From assembly GCA_951812955.1 (NCBI GenBank), contig OX638340.1, positions 3,200,001-3,264,000 of the forward strand: a stretch of DNA of 64,000 bases, given 5' to 3'. The notes beneath the pieces are model-generated. The model was not told the origin of the DNA. It searched no databases and saw only the letters and a program-made list of their open reading frames with translations. Below, one piece after another: positions 9,585 through 30,616 of the stretch. The translations under genes and the position numbers were made by a program. Numbering within the stretch: the first letter of the stretch is position 1; the number at the start of each line of letters is the position of its first letter. This DNA is from an uncultured Gemmatimonadota bacterium (GTDB taxonomy: Bacteria > JAAXHH01).

Positions 9585-10370
9585 ATGGCCATACAATCCT
9601 CGGAAGCCATCGTGCTGAACCGGATACCGCTGGGGGATACCAGTCTCCTGGTCACGGTTTACGCCCGGGCCTTCGGCAAGGTAAAACTCGTGGCCCGCGG
9701 AGCGCGCCGCTCGAAGCGGGGGACGGCGTCTTTACTGCAACCATACCAGGTGATCACGGTATACTTCAACCACCGCACAAACCGCGAATTGCAGCAACTT
9801 TCGAAAGTCGAGGCGGGACCGTACTTCAGGCAGATCGGAGAAGACCTCACGAAGGTGGCTTATGCCAGCGCAGTTTGTGAACTGGTGAACAGGCTGGTCC
9901 TGGGCGAAGAGCCCGGCGAAGCGCTCTTCGGGCTGATCTTTCGCACGCTGGAAGCGATCGACCGGCAGTCCGCGGAATCGTGCGAAATGCTGTTCTGGCG
10001 CTTTCAGATCGAATTCGCCGATGTCTACGGCACCGGACCCGAGTTCACATCCTGCCTGGGATGCGGTGAGCGCCCGGAGGAAACGTCGGTCTGCTTCAGT
10101 CCGGCCCTGGGCGGGATTCTGTGCCGCGACTGCCAGGCGCAGGACGGCGAGGCGATGCGGATCTCCCTGGGTACCGCGCGGCTGTTGTCCCGCGTGCGCG
10201 AGTTGCCGCTGGAGAATCTGACGAGACTGAAGCCCGTGAGGACGTCGCGGCGCGAGATTCAGCGCGCAATCCGAGCCTTCTACCTGTTTCAGATGGACGA
10301 CGGACGGGAGTTGAAATCACTGAAATTCCTGGAGTCGATCGAGGAAGACAGTCGGGAGCGCCGGCAATGA
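9585..10370 (+). CDS. recO: DNA repair protein RecO
   Basis: 261 aa. N-terminal OB fold (EAIVLNRIPLGDTSLLVTVYAR) and a C-terminal Cys4 zinc motif (CLGCG...CRDC), typical of RecO. Confidence 0.85.
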   Translation: MAIQSSEAIVLNRIPLGDTSLLVTVYARAFGKVKLVARGARRSKRGTASLLQPYQVITVYFNHRTNRELQQLSKVEAGPYFRQIGEDLTKVAYASAVCELVNRLVLGEEPGEALFGLIFRTLEAIDRQSAESCEMLFWRFQIEFADVYGTGPEFTSCLGCGERPEETSVCFSPALGGILCRDCQAQDGEAMRISLGTARLLSRVRELPLENLTRLKPVRTSRREIQRAIRAFYLFQMDDGRELKSLKFLESIEEDSRERRQ

Positions 10371-11365
10371 AGAAGCACGGAACCGGGTACGACGCGGTAA
10401 CCTGGGGCGAAGGTTTTCTGCGCCTTACACCTAGGGGGCGGGAACGATTCGAGCAGGCCTCGGGGTTCGACGTTACCGTGGCCGGCGGCGCCCTGGAGAC
10501 GGCGGTCGGACTCGCAAGGCTTGGCCTCCGTACGGCCTGGCTTTCGGTCGTGGGCGACACGCCCCTGGGCATGAAGCTGGTCAACAAGGTCCGGGAGCAT
10601 GGGGTGGACACGGATCGCGTGGCCCGGTTGCCTGGAGGACGCACCGGGCTGTGTTACGCCGAGACGGGTAGCGCGCCGAGGCCGACCCGGACCTGGTACG
10701 ACATGGACGATACCGCCTTCCGTTCAACCCGATCGGGCACGGAGGACTGGCCTTCCGATCGCGAAACGGCCGTCCTGCACCTGGACCTCACGGCGCCCAT
10801 GCTCGATGCCGTCAACGCCTCCAGACTGGAAGCCGCCCTCGAATGCACCCGGGCCGCGAACAACCCGGTCAGTCTCCTGTTGGACGTACCGGGCGGGGAG
10901 CGCCTCGACGATGAAGTAGAAAAGCGGGTAGTCGATCTCGTGGATGCCGCGGAAATCCTCATGTTGACGCTACGTTCCCTCGAGACGATCTGTGGGTTCG
11001 AAGGGCCGCTGGCCACGGCGGTCGATCTGGCACGGACCCGGTTCGGCGCGAAACACACGGTGGTCGTGGATCACCGTCTCCCCGCGGCCGGCGTGGCGAC
11101 CTGGAGTGGCATCGCGGTTTCCCCCACCGGCGAGGCGTTCGAAGACCGTATAGACGGGATCAGGGTGATCGACACCGACGGCGCGCTGGGAGCCTTCGCG
11201 GCAGGTTGTCTACTCGGTTTACAGGAGGACTGCACCCGTTCCGCCTTGCGGTACGGCAGTGCCGCTGCCGCCCTGGCCTGTTCCGTACCCGGACCTTTAA
11301 ACTGGTTCACCAGGGAGGACCTGGAATTGCAGATCGAAGGAACCGGATCGAGGCTTCAGCGTTAG
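10367..11365 (+). CDS. PfkB-family carbohydrate kinase (2-dehydro-3-deoxygluconokinase KdgK-like)
   Basis: Internal start MKKHGTGYDAVTWGEGFLRL; the start overlaps the recO stop (ATGA). The ribokinase-like fold is suggested by the N-terminal GE(G/C) pattern and the C-terminal DTDGALGAF(AAG) anion-hole-like segment. The long track ORF from 10121 is an upstream extension in the same frame. Confidence 0.7.
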   Translation: MKKHGTGYDAVTWGEGFLRLTPRGRERFEQASGFDVTVAGGALETAVGLARLGLRTAWLSVVGDTPLGMKLVNKVREHGVDTDRVARLPGGRTGLCYAETGSAPRPTRTWYDMDDTAFRSTRSGTEDWPSDRETAVLHLDLTAPMLDAVNASRLEAALECTRAANNPVSLLLDVPGGERLDDEVEKRVVDLVDAAEILMLTLRSLETICGFEGPLATAVDLARTRFGAKHTVVVDHRLPAAGVATWSGIAVSPTGEAFEDRIDGIRVIDTDGALGAFAAGCLLGLQEDCTRSALRYGSAAAALACSVPGPLNWFTREDLELQIEGTGSRLQR

Positions 11366-11381
11366 ATCGATACGGATAAGT

Positions 11382-11411
11382 CCCGGCCGGGTGCCGGGTT
11401 TTTGTTTTTTT
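11382..11411 (+). terminator. Rho-independent terminator after the kinase gene
   Basis: Hairpin cccggc-cgggt-gccggg followed by tttttgttttttt. Confidence 0.55.
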
Positions 11412-11792
11412 CGTGACTCAAATCGAAGGAAAAGTGCATCCGGATTGTAGGTATTAAGATAGCGTCAATGTACCCGAGGTCATTTCGATTGCAGAAACCA
11501 TGGACGACTCGATAATCACAACAGATCATTTCGACCGTCCGCCCCGGGCTCAAACCCATAAGAGGAGGCAGGAAGATGGCAGGAAGATTCCTTATCATGC
11601 GGTCCATCACGCGTCCCAAGCCCTTCGTCACTGACGCGGGCACGCCGATCTCGTCTCCGGAGTGTTGTTGGCGCAATCCCTGACATACAAATCTGGTCAG
11701 GGTAACTGACGCACGTCCTCCGGAGCCGCGAGACCCACGTCAAGCGGTGTTTTTTTTTCTTGAGCGAACTCAACCGGAGGTAGAATCACTTC

Positions 11793-12221
11793 ATGTATAA
11801 TCCTGAATTCTGGGAAATCCGATTGGAACAGATTGATCTGGAGCAGTTTCCCAATGAAGCGAATATCTGGTACGAGACGGGGGAGGATCGGGTGCACAGG
11901 TATCAGCGCGAAGACCGGGTGGACGAACTGGCCGACTCGGTCTACGATTTCCTTTCCCAGTATCTGACCCAGAAACAGTGCGAGGTCGTGGTGCTGTATT
12001 TCATTTATCAAAAGACCCAGCAGGAGGCAGCGGATATCCTGGGCATCTCCCGCAGGGTCGTGAGCCAGCACTTGTTCGGGATTTGTCGGGAAGGCAAGCA
12101 TATAGGGGGCGCGGTCAACAAGTTGCGCAAACTGTGTGCCCGGCATGGAATCGACTTTCAACCTGCCGAGCAGACGTTCGAGACGCAGGAATTCCGCGAC
12201 CGGCTCGCCATTTCCGCCTGA
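11793..12221 (+). CDS. Small protein with a sigma-70 region-4-type HTH only (standalone sigma4 domain / putative transcription regulator)
   Basis: 142 aa. LTQKQCEVVVLYFIYQKTQQEAADILGISRRVVSQHLFG matches the sigma-70 region 4 pattern (L..RQREV..L.....S..EIA..LGIS..TV), but there is no region 2. RBS GGAGGT lies upstream. Local GC is clearly below the window average. Confidence 0.5.
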   Translation: MYNPEFWEIRLEQIDLEQFPNEANIWYETGEDRVHRYQREDRVDELADSVYDFLSQYLTQKQCEVVVLYFIYQKTQQEAADILGISRRVVSQHLFGICREGKHIGGAVNKLRKLCARHGIDFQPAEQTFETQEFRDRLAISA

Positions 12222-12258
12222 AAGACCATCCCGTACCGCTTCATGCCACTACGGAAAA

Positions 12259-12289
12259 GCCGCCGGAAGCACCATCTGGCGGCTTTTTT
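12259..12289 (+). terminator. Rho-independent terminator after the sigma4-like gene
   Basis: gccgccgg-aagcaccat-ctggcggc hairpin followed by tttttt. Confidence 0.6.
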
Positions 12290-12306
12290 AGTGAAAGAGA
12301 ATAAGC

Positions 12307-12900
12307 TTGATGGATCGTGATAGATTCTCGGACGCGATAGAGCGTATAGACGCCGCCAACGGCGCCGATCCGGAAACGGAAGAAGCAGAGGGCCGAACCT
12401 GGCCGAAGGCGTTGCTGTACGGCGTGCGGATGTCCGCCTGCCTGGAGGAACTGGCGGCAGACGCGTCGGAAGCGCTGTGCCTCGCCGTGCGTTGCCAGCA
12501 TATTCAAAGGTGGAAGATACCCCGCGAGGATTATCCCGTGGGCCGGCTCGGTTACCGGCAGTGGAGAACGGAACTGGCCGGGTACCATGCCCAGACCGCG
12601 GGCTCGATCCTGCGGGATGCCGGTTATGACGACGCACTCGTAGACCGGGTGAAGTCCCTCGTCAGAAAGGAAAGACTCAAGGCCGACCCGGAGGCGCAGA
12701 CCCTCGAGGACGTTGCCTGCCTGGTGTTTTTCCGGTACTACCTGCCCGCATTCGCGAAAAAGCACAAAGAGGAGAAACTGGTCGAAATCCTGGCAAGGAC
12801 CTGGAAGAAGATGTCGCCCGCGGGCCGGGCCGCGGCTCGAGCCATCGCCTTGACACCCGTACTGAAATCGTTGCTGGACCGTGCGATCCGGCAAGGTTAA
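12307..12900 (+). CDS. DUF4202-family hypothetical protein
   Basis: 197 aa. N-terminus DRFSDAIERIDAANGADP resembles the conserved DUF4202 start (RF..AI..IDAANAEDP); otherwise no motifs. Confidence 0.5.
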   Translation: MMDRDRFSDAIERIDAANGADPETEEAEGRTWPKALLYGVRMSACLEELAADASEALCLAVRCQHIQRWKIPREDYPVGRLGYRQWRTELAGYHAQTAGSILRDAGYDDALVDRVKSLVRKERLKADPEAQTLEDVACLVFFRYYLPAFAKKHKEEKLVEILARTWKKMSPAGRAAARAIALTPVLKSLLDRAIRQG

Positions 12901-12914
12901 CGAGCGATCTTATC

Positions 12915-14267
12915 ATGACCGAACACCGTTCTCCCAATATCGTATTCGTTTTTGGTGATCAGCACCGTTGGTGCAGTACCGGATTCGGCGGAAGCCGCCA
13001 GGTGCGCACGCCTTACATGGACCGCATGGCCCGGGAAGGCGTCGCCTTCGATCTGGCAGTCGCCAACGTTCCGGTCTGCACGCCCTGGCGGGCGGCGTTT
13101 CTTACCGGACAGTATCCGTTGACGACCGGCATGTTCATGAACGACGTGCGGCTGCCAGTGGACCGGCCGACACTGGGGACGGTCCTGCGCGCCGCGGGCT
13201 ACCGGACCGCGTACATCGGCAAATGGCATCTCGACGGCCCGTCGCGGGGTGGATTCACGCCGCCGGGCCCGCGCAGACAGGGATTCGATTTCTGGGCCGT
13301 GGGAAACTGCACCCACGACTACATGCACTCCGTGTACTACCGGGATACGGACGCGCCGCTGTACTGGGACGGGTACGACGCGGAGGCACAGACTTCCCTG
13401 GCCATCGAATACATCCAATCCGGAAAGCGGGACAGTCCCTTCGCGCTGGTCCTGTCATGGGGGCCGCCGCACAATCCCTACGAGGCGGTGCCTGCCAGAT
13501 ACCGCGATCTGTATCCGGCGGACGAGATCGAGGTGCGTCCCAACTGTACCGACCCAAACCGTGACGACATTGCGGGATACTACGCCCACATAACGGCCCT
13601 TGACGATCAACTGGCGCGCCTGGGGAATGCCCTCGATGAACAGGGGCTGATGGAGAACACGGTGTTCGTCTATACGTCGGACCACGGTGACATGCTCGGA
13701 TCACAGGGCCGGCAGCGCAAGCAGCACCCCTGGGACGAGTCCATCCGCGTCCCCTTCGTCATGCGTTGCCCGGACCAGGCGTACGGGGGGCTTCGCATCG
13801 AAACGCCGTTCAACGTGGTGGACATCATGCCGACGCTGCTCGGCCTGACCGGAATTCCCGCCCCCGGCGCCTGCGAGGGCAGGGACCACGCTCCGGCGGT
13901 GCGAGGCGACAACTTTACGGGAAACGAAGCCGCCTATATCATGAGTATCGTGCCCTTTTCGGAATACCGGGGCCAGCCCTGGCGGGGCATCCGGACCGAC
14001 GGGCATACCTACGTACGCAATCTCGACGGCCCCTGGCTGCTGTATGACAACCGGGAAGATCCCTGCCAGATGAGCAACCTGGCCGGCAGGGAAGAACATG
14101 CGGCGTTGCAGCGCCGGTTGGACGAACAACTGGAGAAAGAGATGGTCCGCCGGGGCGACGCACTGCTCCCCGCCGAGCATTACTTGGAGCGATTCGGCTA
14201 TGAAGTGAACGAAGTCGGCGCGATCCCGCACGACAATGCGGTTCGCCCGCCGGATCGACGCGCTTAG
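12915..14267 (+). CDS. Sulfatase (formylglycine-dependent arylsulfatase family)
   Basis: 450 aa. CTPWRAAFLTGQYP matches the C-x-P-x-R formylglycine motif plus the downstream LTG.YP. Also GKWHLDG and YTSDHGDMLGSQG. Confidence 0.85.
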   Translation: MTEHRSPNIVFVFGDQHRWCSTGFGGSRQVRTPYMDRMAREGVAFDLAVANVPVCTPWRAAFLTGQYPLTTGMFMNDVRLPVDRPTLGTVLRAAGYRTAYIGKWHLDGPSRGGFTPPGPRRQGFDFWAVGNCTHDYMHSVYYRDTDAPLYWDGYDAEAQTSLAIEYIQSGKRDSPFALVLSWGPPHNPYEAVPARYRDLYPADEIEVRPNCTDPNRDDIAGYYAHITALDDQLARLGNALDEQGLMENTVFVYTSDHGDMLGSQGRQRKQHPWDESIRVPFVMRCPDQAYGGLRIETPFNVVDIMPTLLGLTGIPAPGACEGRDHAPAVRGDNFTGNEAAYIMSIVPFSEYRGQPWRGIRTDGHTYVRNLDGPWLLYDNREDPCQMSNLAGREEHAALQRRLDEQLEKEMVRRGDALLPAEHYLERFGYEVNEVGAIPHDNAVRPPDRRA

Positions 14268-30223: not shown

Positions 30224-30616
30224 CGATTCCCGCGCTGCAACTATGACAAGGGAACGGTCGAAAAGGTTGCGTTTTTTCGACCTGCGCGGTCTCACGATGC
30301 GACGTCGGCGCCGAGACGTACTGCATACACTCCGGCGGGCCTTCTTATTCACATAACCCTTCCGGTTTTCCCCGGAGCGGATGCACTTGTCCTTTCTACC
30401 CGGCCGGCGACGGGCATACGGTGCGGTACGGTGCGGAATATGCTTTTGCCTGACGGAATCACGACTGCATATTACAGGACAGGTGGTACAGGTCCCGCCT
30501 ATCGCGCAGTGACGATCGCGATACGGTATTCCGCACGACCCGTTCCGCCAGGCGCGGCGTCCGCGCGCCCGTAACCCGTGCAGTTCCCCACACTCCGCAG
30601 TACGTGGAGATCCCAC

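Follow-up and report, generated by a model that had tools for sequence, protein, structure and literature searches.

The stretch of DNA analysed here (the window) comprises 64,000 nucleotides (nt) of contig OX638340.1, assembly GCA_951812955.1, from an uncultured Gemmatimonadota bacterium. Our subject is a small gene within it, here called sig4, and the DNA that precedes this gene. It lies between a PfkB-family kinase gene, which ends at 11365, and a DUF4202 gene, and it encodes a 142-residue protein with a sigma-70 region 4 (sigma4) helix-turn-helix (HTH). An earlier reading made from the letters without database searches (the sequence-only reading) had described the region as a low-GC islet bounded by two terminators. 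Both the drop in GC, from ~0.65-0.70 to 0.455-0.57 across ~11300-12300, and the two terminators, at 11382-11411 and ~12258-12290, are indeed present. The stem of the first reads CCCGGC-CGGGT-GCCGGG (11382-11398) and is followed by TTTTTGTTTTTTT, with a T-run that is retained in relatives. The second has a 14-bp stem at ~12258-12290 and was equalled in stability by 0 of 200 shuffled sequences; it was missed by a simple terminator scanner and detected by its folding energy relative to shuffles. All features listed in the sequence-only reading recur in related genomes and are therefore not due to chance. The region is probably one monocistronic regulatory unit, in which a sigma4-type HTH gene stands behind a 5' leader of ~300 nt containing an upstream open reading frame (uORF), Shine-Dalgarno (SD) sequences and segments of alternative pairing. 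The features are as follows, each with the evidence for it (MFE, minimum free energy):

11382-11411, + strand: intrinsic terminator 1, of the upstream pfkB-family kinase gene (6-bp GC stem and T-rich tail)
11432-11458, + strand: conserved motif AAGTGCATCC-N6-(G)T(A/G)GTA, a candidate operator or promoter element (conservation)
11563-11568, + strand: SD1 (AGGAGG), ribosome-binding site (RBS) of the uORF and 5' strand of helix H1 (conservation, MFE fold)
11576-11683, + strand: uORF of 35 codons with stop TGA at 11681-11683 (translation exactly as quoted in the sequence-only reading)
11649-11662, + strand: element A (TCTCGTCTCCGGAG), the switch strand, pairing with SD1 (H1) or with element B and the terminator 5' arm (H2) (RNAalifold, pair counts)
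11678-11702, + strand: stop-codon hairpin (CCCTGAC...GTCAGGG), apical inside the antiterminator loop (fold, relatives)
11717-11733, + strand: element B (CCTCCGGAG, anti-SD2) and terminator 5' arm (GCGAGA), the 3' strand of H2; B alone pairs with SD2 (H4)
11725-11758, + strand: attenuator, with terminator hairpin 11725-11748 and U9 11750-11758 (fold; predicted terminator)
11774-11780, + strand: SD2 region (CCGGAGG) of sig4, sequestered by B in the terminator state (full-length MFE fold, covariation)
11793-12221, + strand: sig4, encoding the 142-residue sigma-70 region-4-only HTH protein (Pfam, homologue alignment, AlphaFold 2 (AF2) model)
12258-12290, + strand: strong intrinsic terminator 2, closing the putative monocistronic unit (dG -27.5 kcal/mol, z = -5.1)

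To compare leaders we used 80 of 256 loci (L001-L080) from the Genome Taxonomy Database (GTDB), and for fine-scale divergence 19 close relatives. The 380-nt stretch upstream of sig4 is a conserved leader rather than plain intergenic DNA. Among the close relatives the mean pairwise difference is 0.11-0.17 in the upstream motif block, SD1, the uORF (0.17), B with the terminator (0.11) and SD2, and 0.45 in the spacer 3' of the kinase terminator. The layout recurs in nearly all 80 loci, where the sig4 protein is 48-100% identical. It starts with 'GAAAGGAGGC', 4-9 nt, an ATG and an ORF of 10-40 codons, and continues with element A ('CCGCCTCCnGAGGG') near the end of the ORF, a stop codon (mostly TGA) 2-25 nt further on and a variable hairpin. 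It ends with element B ('CCCTCCGGAG'), a GC hairpin with T6-9, a spacer of 15-35 nt, SD2 ('CGGAGGAGA') and the sig4 ATG. The spacing between GGAGG of SD2 and this ATG (window 11776-11795) is unusually long, at 11-13 nt, and is conserved in all loci.

A covariance model (R1) trained on 45 leaders matches the 64-kb window a single time (11639-11797, 104 bits). Of 81 sources (0.97 Mb), 79 have a single match, which in every case adjoins the sig4 ATG; of the two sources that lack a match, one is a contig that ends early and the other is the most divergent locus. Rfam 15 returned only weak terminator-like matches for the window at E <= 10, and no match at the gathering score for nine diverse loci. 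A metagenome scan with the 15-mer CTCCGGAGCCGCGGG gave 120 matches, one with a sig4 gene and 0 with the following T-run, and was unhelpful because the pattern is too GC-rich and unspecific. The predicted leader switch is conserved across the phylum Latescibacterota and absent from Rfam, and the suggestion in the sequence-only reading of a regulatory module is borne out.

The uORF has the properties of the leader ORF of an attenuator: its own RBS, a 7-nt spacer, an ATG and 35 codons, with predicted translation. Its AGGAGG (11563-11568), said earlier to be ideally spaced, does stand 7 nt ahead of the ATG. The heptamer AGGAGGC is invariant in the 19 close relatives, 'AAAGGAGGC' followed by ATG is found in nearly all 80 loci, and a uORF of 10-40 codons with an SD and a start was recognized by script in 69-72 of 81 leaders and by eye in more. 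A 9-nt insertion in the uORF of L019 stays in frame, and the 1-nt deletions in L012 and L013 alter the tail only. In most leaders the stop lies 2-25 nt beyond the core of A. The hairpin that had been proposed around the stop codon has 7 bp, 11678-11684 with 11696-11702; in relatives the base of its stem is retained and the interior is variable. The peptide itself is another matter. Divergence by codon position in the window clade is 0.269/0.174/0.161, with no third-position excess, and peptides of different clades are unrelated except for Pro-Pro where the invariant GCCTCC is so read; this element is read in different frames in different clades. A conserved peptide gene was rejected as an explanation on these two grounds. 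Of the earlier claim of a small ORF with a strong RBS, the conserved feature is real, and the proposed peptide gene or small RNA (sRNA) gives way to a leader ORF as the best reading, third positions showing no relaxation. By these comparisons the uORF is kept as an ORF, and its peptide sequence is not under selection. It is presumably translated.

Complementarity across ~80 loci supports four mutually exclusive helices: SD1 with A (H1), A with B plus the terminator 5' arm (H2), the terminator itself, and B with SD2 (H4). The motif of element B occurs once per locus. Compensatory changes are strongest in H2, the putative antiterminator, where they affect 12 of 18 pairs. H2 was the sole helix returned unprompted by RNAalifold from 36 diverse leaders, as a pairing of A with the 3' end of B and the terminator 5' arm; extension by eye showed all of A to be complementary to all of B and that arm. 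The helix was evaluated on three alignments. On A3, 81% of cells are paired and compensatory change affects 11 of 17 pairs; 0 of 500 shuffles do as well in pairing or covariation score. On A5 the values are 79.9% and 12 of 18. On A6, a model-derived alignment of 77 distinct sequences that was fitted to a structure other than H2, they are 82.0% of 1278 cells and 12 of 18, with 0 of 500 shuffles; slid controls on A6 are 44-55% paired. The mean duplex energy is -26.1 kcal/mol for cognate partners, -21.4 for non-cognate and -18.4 for shuffled ones.

In the window the H2 duplex (-24.7 kcal/mol) is the MFE structure of the nascent transcript: RNA ending at 11735 folds with 11649-54 paired to 11728-33 and 11655-62 to 11718-25, around the stop-codon hairpin. 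H2 excludes the terminator and overlaps the uORF, as expected of the antiterminator of an attenuator. The full-length MFE structure consists of H1 (11564-69 with 11653-58, and more), the terminator (11725-29 with 11744-48, 11732-34 with 11739-41) and H4 (11717-11723 with 11774-11780). In H4, 78.6% of cells pair and compensatory change affects 7 of 10 pairs, an outcome that 0 of 500 shuffles equal; L051 (TCCTCCAAA/TTTGGAGGA) and L073 (CCTCTCTCCG/CGGAGAGAGG) are examples. SD2 is predicted to be sequestered by B, as in leaders of the erm/cat type, and B is also part of H2. For H1, whose core is a generic GGAGG:CCTCC, 78.9% of cells are paired, a value reached by 2 of 500 shuffles.

Between the uORF and sig4 stands an intrinsic terminator of predicted activity, which ends 35 nt ahead of the sig4 start codon. 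The T9 run that the sequence-only reading had noted after the ORF hairpin exists and looks functional; it lies at 11750-11758, one base off from the ~11749-11757 given then. In 76 of 81 leaders a T-tail comes directly after a hairpin (median dG -14.6 kcal/mol), and the stems differ widely (GCGAGAC/GTCACGC, GCGGGCGCAG.., GCACTGCGAG.., CCACGAGCA..). The distance from U-run to SD2, only 15-35 nt, leaves no room for a separate promoter, so that sig4 would be expressed only by read-through. The hairpin presumably terminates transcription.

The comparisons document the uORF, the predicted terminator and a set of four predicted alternative helices, all conserved throughout the phylum. We propose, with a probability of roughly two in three, that a ribosome-dependent transcription attenuator with a coupled SD-sequestering layer gates sig4. 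H1 would serve as anti-antiterminator and H2 as antiterminator. With no ribosome on the leader, H1 would form first and hold A, the terminator would form, and B would mask SD2 (OFF). A ribosome finishing the uORF would cover A during transcription of the terminator and likewise lead to the terminator and H4 (OFF). The OFF state would act at both levels, as read-through RNA would still have SD2 paired with B in H4. If SD1 and the start region were occupied and A were free, H2 would form, removing the terminator, sequestering B and exposing SD2 (ON). A ribosome retained on or close to the uORF start could bring about this state, as could following ribosomes after the first had been released ~75 nt before RNA polymerase reaches the U-run. 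Expression of sig4 would thereby report ribosome traffic on the uORF. Both the signal and the translation state assigned to ON are inferred.

Several observations weigh against this proposal. Stability of the whole leader fold is unremarkable (z = -1.31), a value that fits a switch but is uninformative. A and B are CCTCC-rich and their partners are SD sequences, so that part of the H1 and H4 complementarity is automatic; covariation in H1 is modest and limited outside its GGAGG:CCTCC core, and H4 did only marginally well when its register was kept rigid (68 and 36 of 1000 permutations). Because the loci share ancestry, comparison with shuffles exaggerates the significance of the pairings. Stem lengths vary from clade to clade, so that the terminator helix yields little covariation when columns are fixed, and it was assessed instead by a hairpin test on each sequence. 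Members of the L029-L047 clade have a weak hairpin (-8 kcal/mol) followed by a T5 run only, and in the window a C-to-A change weakens the terminator stem in comparison with related sequences. ON and OFF could also be assigned the wrong way round. Finally, the organisms behind the loci are uncultivated metagenome-assembled genomes (MAGs), and the proposal draws on their sequences.

Among the closest known systems is vmlR of Bacillus subtilis, in which a ribosome stalled on a uORF blocks the anti-antiterminator so that the antiterminator forms, and in which translation attenuation operates too (PMC9226507). Both leaders have a uORF, mutually exclusive anti-antiterminator (putative in the sig4 leader), antiterminator and intrinsic terminator structures, selection of the structure by the position of the uORF ribosome (as proposed for sig4), and a second, translational layer; by this analogy the proposed ON logic of the sig4 leader would match that of vmlR (PMC9226507). 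There is no sequence or structural homology between them, however, and sig4 encodes an HTH regulator whereas vmlR encodes an ABCF resistance factor. In the sig4 leader, moreover, the SD and start region of the uORF itself provide the 5' strand of the putative anti-antiterminator, and a single predicted antiterminator helix takes up both the terminator arm and the anti-SD strand.

The sig4 leader also resembles, by analogy, the ribosome-availability sensing proposed for duf1127 of Sinorhizobium meliloti (PMC12218461), where the uORF RBS pairs with C-rich uORF codons and monitors ribosome availability. In both, the uORF RBS pairs with a C-rich stretch within the uORF (by prediction in the sig4 leader) and a small gene is controlled. 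In duf1127 the C-rich codons are at the uORF start and their accessibility promotes attenuation (PMC12218461), whereas in the sig4 leader the C-rich element occupies the 3' part of the uORF and, when accessible, would favour antitermination via the terminator arm; the sequences of the two elements are unrelated. With the trp, his, leu, thr and pheA leaders the sig4 leader shares, by prediction, 1:2, 2:3 and 3:4 alternative pairing with an intrinsic terminator, and with ermC the masking of SD2 by an upstream complementary segment. Unlike the classical attenuators, sig4 leaders have no family-wide runs of regulatory codons and no conserved peptide, segment 1 is an SD rather than coding sequence, and sig4 is neither a biosynthetic nor a resistance gene.

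We weighed four other explanations, all of which are less consistent with the data than the uORF attenuator. The codons of element A raise the question of whether a specific amino acid is sensed. In attenuation that senses proline (or another amino acid, or elongation factor P), Pro codons in A would stall the ribosome, as in mgtL/mgtP or the trp/his leaders. Polyproline stalls ribosomes, GCCTCC is mostly read xxG-CCT-CCx to give S/P-P-P (YPPPER, SPPVR; 55 of 68 leaders by script), and the stop codon is only a few codons beyond. The window clade, however, encodes S-S-P-E-C-C-W with one Pro only, at least eight leaders use another frame (L035, L044, L054, L055, L059, L072, L073, L077), and the nucleotides are conserved irrespective of frame and covary with their RNA partners. 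Clades share no run of codons for a sensed amino acid of the trp/his type; many leaders have Pro-Pro, but the window clade and the other-frame clades lack it. A ribosome stalled on Pro codons would also cover A and favour termination, so that starvation would turn sig4 off, an odd logic for a regulator. We regard this explanation as unlikely.

The strong SD, ATG, ORF and terminator could instead mark the segment from the upstream motif to U9 as an independent small gene, either a dual-function sRNA or a 35-residue Cys-containing micropeptide with its own terminator. A similar stand-alone unit with no gene behind it is carried downstream of sig4 in nine distant loci, and such units can therefore exist by themselves. 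A terminated leader could, besides, act in trans as a by-product, which is compatible with attenuation. What makes an independent gene improbable is that the 15-35 nt between U-run and SD2 are too short for a promoter, that the element stands directly against the sig4 ATG in 79 of 79 cases, and that B:SD2 and A:(B + terminator 5' arm) tie it to the sig4 RBS; the codon-position divergence and the unconserved peptide described above speak against it as well.

Sequestration of SD2 by B would equally suit a purely translational switch, such as a thermosensor, a ligand riboswitch or a protein-binding leader, in which the uORF would be incidental and the hairpin and U-run would be structural or a site for Hfq or another protein. 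The weak terminator of the L029-L047 clade and further conserved blocks upstream of SD1 would fit. Yet nearly every leader has SD1 with an ATG at 4-9 nt and an ORF ending near A, most have a canonical GC hairpin with T6-9, and neither an Rfam match nor a conserved aptamer-like multi-helix junction was seen in the leaders, so we consider this a poor candidate. The last explanation, that of a foreign islet, bears on the history of the gene and is taken up below.

The uORF attenuator, if it operates as proposed, would control the synthesis of the sig4 protein. The sequence-only reading had inferred a 142-residue protein with a region-4 HTH and no region 2, and profile searches agree: Pfam Sigma70_r4 matches residues 58-95 (E 1.1e-8), Sigma70_r4_2 also matches, the scores being 34.8 bits for PF04545 (cut-off 24.1) and 26.9 for PF08281 (cut-off 25.7), and Sigma70_r2 (region 2, for core binding and -10 recognition) has no match in the protein at E <= 1. 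The NCBIfam profile for extracytoplasmic function (ECF) sigma factors, sigma70-ECF, aligns only at its positions 86-155 (region 4) and scores 35.3, under its cut-off of 42.9. Only ~50 residues precede the HTH, and 34 homologues are equally long. LuxR/GerE-type membership is not indicated, PF00196 scoring 12.5 bits and its cut-off being 23.5.

The 117 close matches from a homology search are all 89-167 residues long (most 120-145) and span the whole query. An exhaustive profile search gave 209 clusters (50% identity) at E <= 1e-10, small proteins aligned end to end; for these distant homologues the cluster look-up gave neither taxonomy nor informative names. In GTDB species representatives 256 loci were confirmed, nearly all from Latescibacterota, from MAGs labelled "Gemmatimonadetes", from Zixibacteria or from Handelsmanbacteria. 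The homologue alignment shows an invariant N-terminal motif from Met1, M-x-N-P-D/E-F-W-E, and an invariant recognition helix with its flank, KTQxE..ILGISRRVVSQHLFGI..R.GK.VGGA.NKLRK. The first sig4 codons, ATG TAY AAY CCN GAY TTY TGG GA, encode residues that hardly vary from Met1 on.

The AF2 model has a predicted local distance difference test (pLDDT) score > 90 for residues 50-120 and shows, in order, a long helix, a three-helix sigma4 HTH, a beta-hairpin and another helix. Its fold matches include SigD4, SigF r4 and SigE r4, and a Foldseek search of the PDB gave generic sigma4, YlxM and KorA HTH matches, none at E <= 0.001. In being essentially a small stand-alone sigma4-type HTH after a helix, the sig4 protein resembles YlxM/UPF0122 (PF04297; PDB 1S7O, 1XSV) and sigma-70 region 4 domains, which give its best sequence matches among solved structures and are also among the fold matches. 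The sig4 protein differs from YlxM in falling under the family cut-offs (PF04297 22.3 versus 22.7; NCBIfam YlxM 26.9 versus 80) and in lacking an ffh neighbour; in the loci examined ffh never adjoins sig4, the neighbours being pfkB and DUF4202 or MgsA and a TMEM14-like gene. The family also has its own invariant N-terminal motif, given above, and a conserved R-x-G-K-x-V-GGA beta-hairpin following the recognition helix.

A split sigma factor of the SigO/RsoA type with an adjacent region-2 partner was considered and rejected, no such gene being found among the neighbours in any clade; across these neighbourhoods neither a region-2-only partner nor an anti-sigma gene is a conserved neighbour of sig4. 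The sequence-only reading had left the choice between a sigma4-only regulator and an ECF remnant. The stand-alone sigma4-type HTH holds up and the remnant does not, in view of a family whose whole length is conserved, the N-terminal motif and the recognition helix being invariant. Judged by these alignments, the sig4 protein represents a strongly conserved sigma-70 region-4-only HTH family and is not a decayed ECF sigma factor. The family is so far uncharacterised.

The inheritance of the unit was evaluated from synteny and composition. The order eno-ftsB-recO-pfkB-[unit]-DUF4202-sulfatase is retained in 21 close relatives, and in close relatives the sig4 protein is 85-92% identical where flanking proteins show 61-91%. 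A comparison of codon usage and GC content with neighbouring genes, which the sequence-only reading had named as a check on foreign origin, gave a GC content at third codon positions (GC3) of 0.706 for sig4 and 0.68-0.79 for its neighbours. Across the 80 loci sig4 GC3 tracks host genome GC, in a range of 0.49-0.87. The GC dip has two sources: GC at second positions (GC2), which is 0.329 and reflects the amino acids encoded, and the leader, which is non-coding and has a GC of 0.528. In L015 a 3-kb insertion (L015:2519-5560) with a SEC-C-motif protein and a DNA methylase fragment, which may be a small mobile or restriction-modification island, separates pfkB from the unit, and the upstream motif, leader and sig4 have stayed together as an intact block.

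A horizontally acquired low-GC islet with a decayed ECF sigma remnant, suggested by the local GC dip, the terminators on both flanks and the detection of region 4 alone, is therefore very improbable given conserved synteny, a gene closer to its relatives' copies than its neighbours are, host-like GC3 in every lineage, full-length conservation with invariant residues from Met1 on, and the block left intact in L015. The earlier inference of horizontal acquisition from composition and terminator bracketing does not survive these comparisons, by which the islet is an old, vertically inherited one-gene unit and not foreign DNA.

The conserved motif upstream of the leader may link the protein to its own gene. 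Of the 80 loci, 76 carry the exact 10-mer AAGTGCATCC (window 11432-11441) on the strand of sig4, 290-430 nt 5' of its ATG; the 10-mer extends to AAGTGCATCC-N6-GTGTA(a/t) with an A/T-rich tract ahead. The 18-mer of this motif has a single occurrence in the window, allowing <=3 mismatches. Distant clades have a TTGACA-N17-TAnnnT promoter between the 10-mer and SD1, 29-62 nt downstream of the former; in the window a sigma-70 promoter scan of 10500-13500 found no sites. The 10-mer is tandemly duplicated 21 nt apart in L006, L008, L010 and L011. A second exact copy in the window (30379-30388, - strand; ~0.1 expected by chance) is apparently non-coding, lies ~165 nt upstream of the likely ATG (~30214) of a DUF5916/CBM9 gene on the - strand and lacks the GTGTA half. 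The invariance of the 10-mer parallels that of the protein's recognition helix. The 10-mer is a candidate operator for the sigma4-only protein or, alternatively, a candidate promoter element of an unusual kind, and autoregulation of sig4 through it is a hypothesis.

Nine distant loci contain a second small unit directly downstream of sig4 with no gene behind it, at L037:6412, L049:6372, L050:3192, L053:1762, L054:2936, L055:2855, L056:6381, L057:4204 and L059:6457. It starts with AAGTGCATCC-N6-GTGTA, followed by ~100 conserved nt (..GCCCGATGCTGATCGATCAG..CCGGAGGCCCGG..), then GAAAGGAGG and, in eight of the nine, an ATG-initiated ORF of 10 codons (MEPNTWRCAV, MLTLNLEGIS and others) that contains CCTGGAGG. 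The unit in L057 has the SD and TGGAGG, and no ATG or GTG ORF was called there. The units end with a hairpin at the stop codon and a strong terminator, and are SD-rich. Such a unit could act in trans by pairing up with the leader's CCUCC strands.

Combining these elements, one may speculate that the sig4 protein, AAGTGCATCC(-N6-GTGTA) and the uORF attenuator form an undescribed phylum-wide circuit, in which the invariant helix ISRRVVSQHLFG would bind the 10-mer at its own and a few other promoters, the leader would license synthesis according to translational status and, in some lineages, the SD-rich companion RNA could titrate the leader CCUCC strands. As a complete scheme this is tentative and rather unlikely.

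Some further observations concern the genes on either side. The longest ORF of the PfkB kinase gene begins with GTG at 10121 and would overlap recO by 250 nt (10121-10370). As the PfkB domain begins only at residue 112, the real start is probably an internal ATG (MKKHGTGYD..) right after the recO stop, around 10370-10400. The DUF4202 gene (window 12307-12900) is directly 3' of the sig4 unit in the window clade, and also in L020 (a marine MAG, 75% identical) and L024 (a Zixibacteria MAG). Other Latescibacterota have an MgsA/RarA ATPase gene upstream of sig4 and a TMEM14-like gene downstream.

Latescibacterota and their relatives (Zixibacteria and sponge-associated "Gemmatimonadetes" MAGs) are uncultivated, and to our knowledge almost nothing is known of gene regulation in these organisms. 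Attenuation dependent on a uORF with coupled masking of an SD is a known kind of control; the sig4 leader would be a variant that is attached to an uncharacterised family of sigma4-only regulators. The leader represents a deeply conserved cis-regulatory RNA, one per locus in 79 of 81 loci and absent from Rfam, and offers a testable case of ribosome-dependent attenuation outside Proteobacteria and Firmicutes. Its predicted design is compact, as one antiterminator helix would dispose of the terminator and the anti-SD strand together. Finally, the sigma4-only family and its candidate operator would permit prediction of regulons in these phyla.

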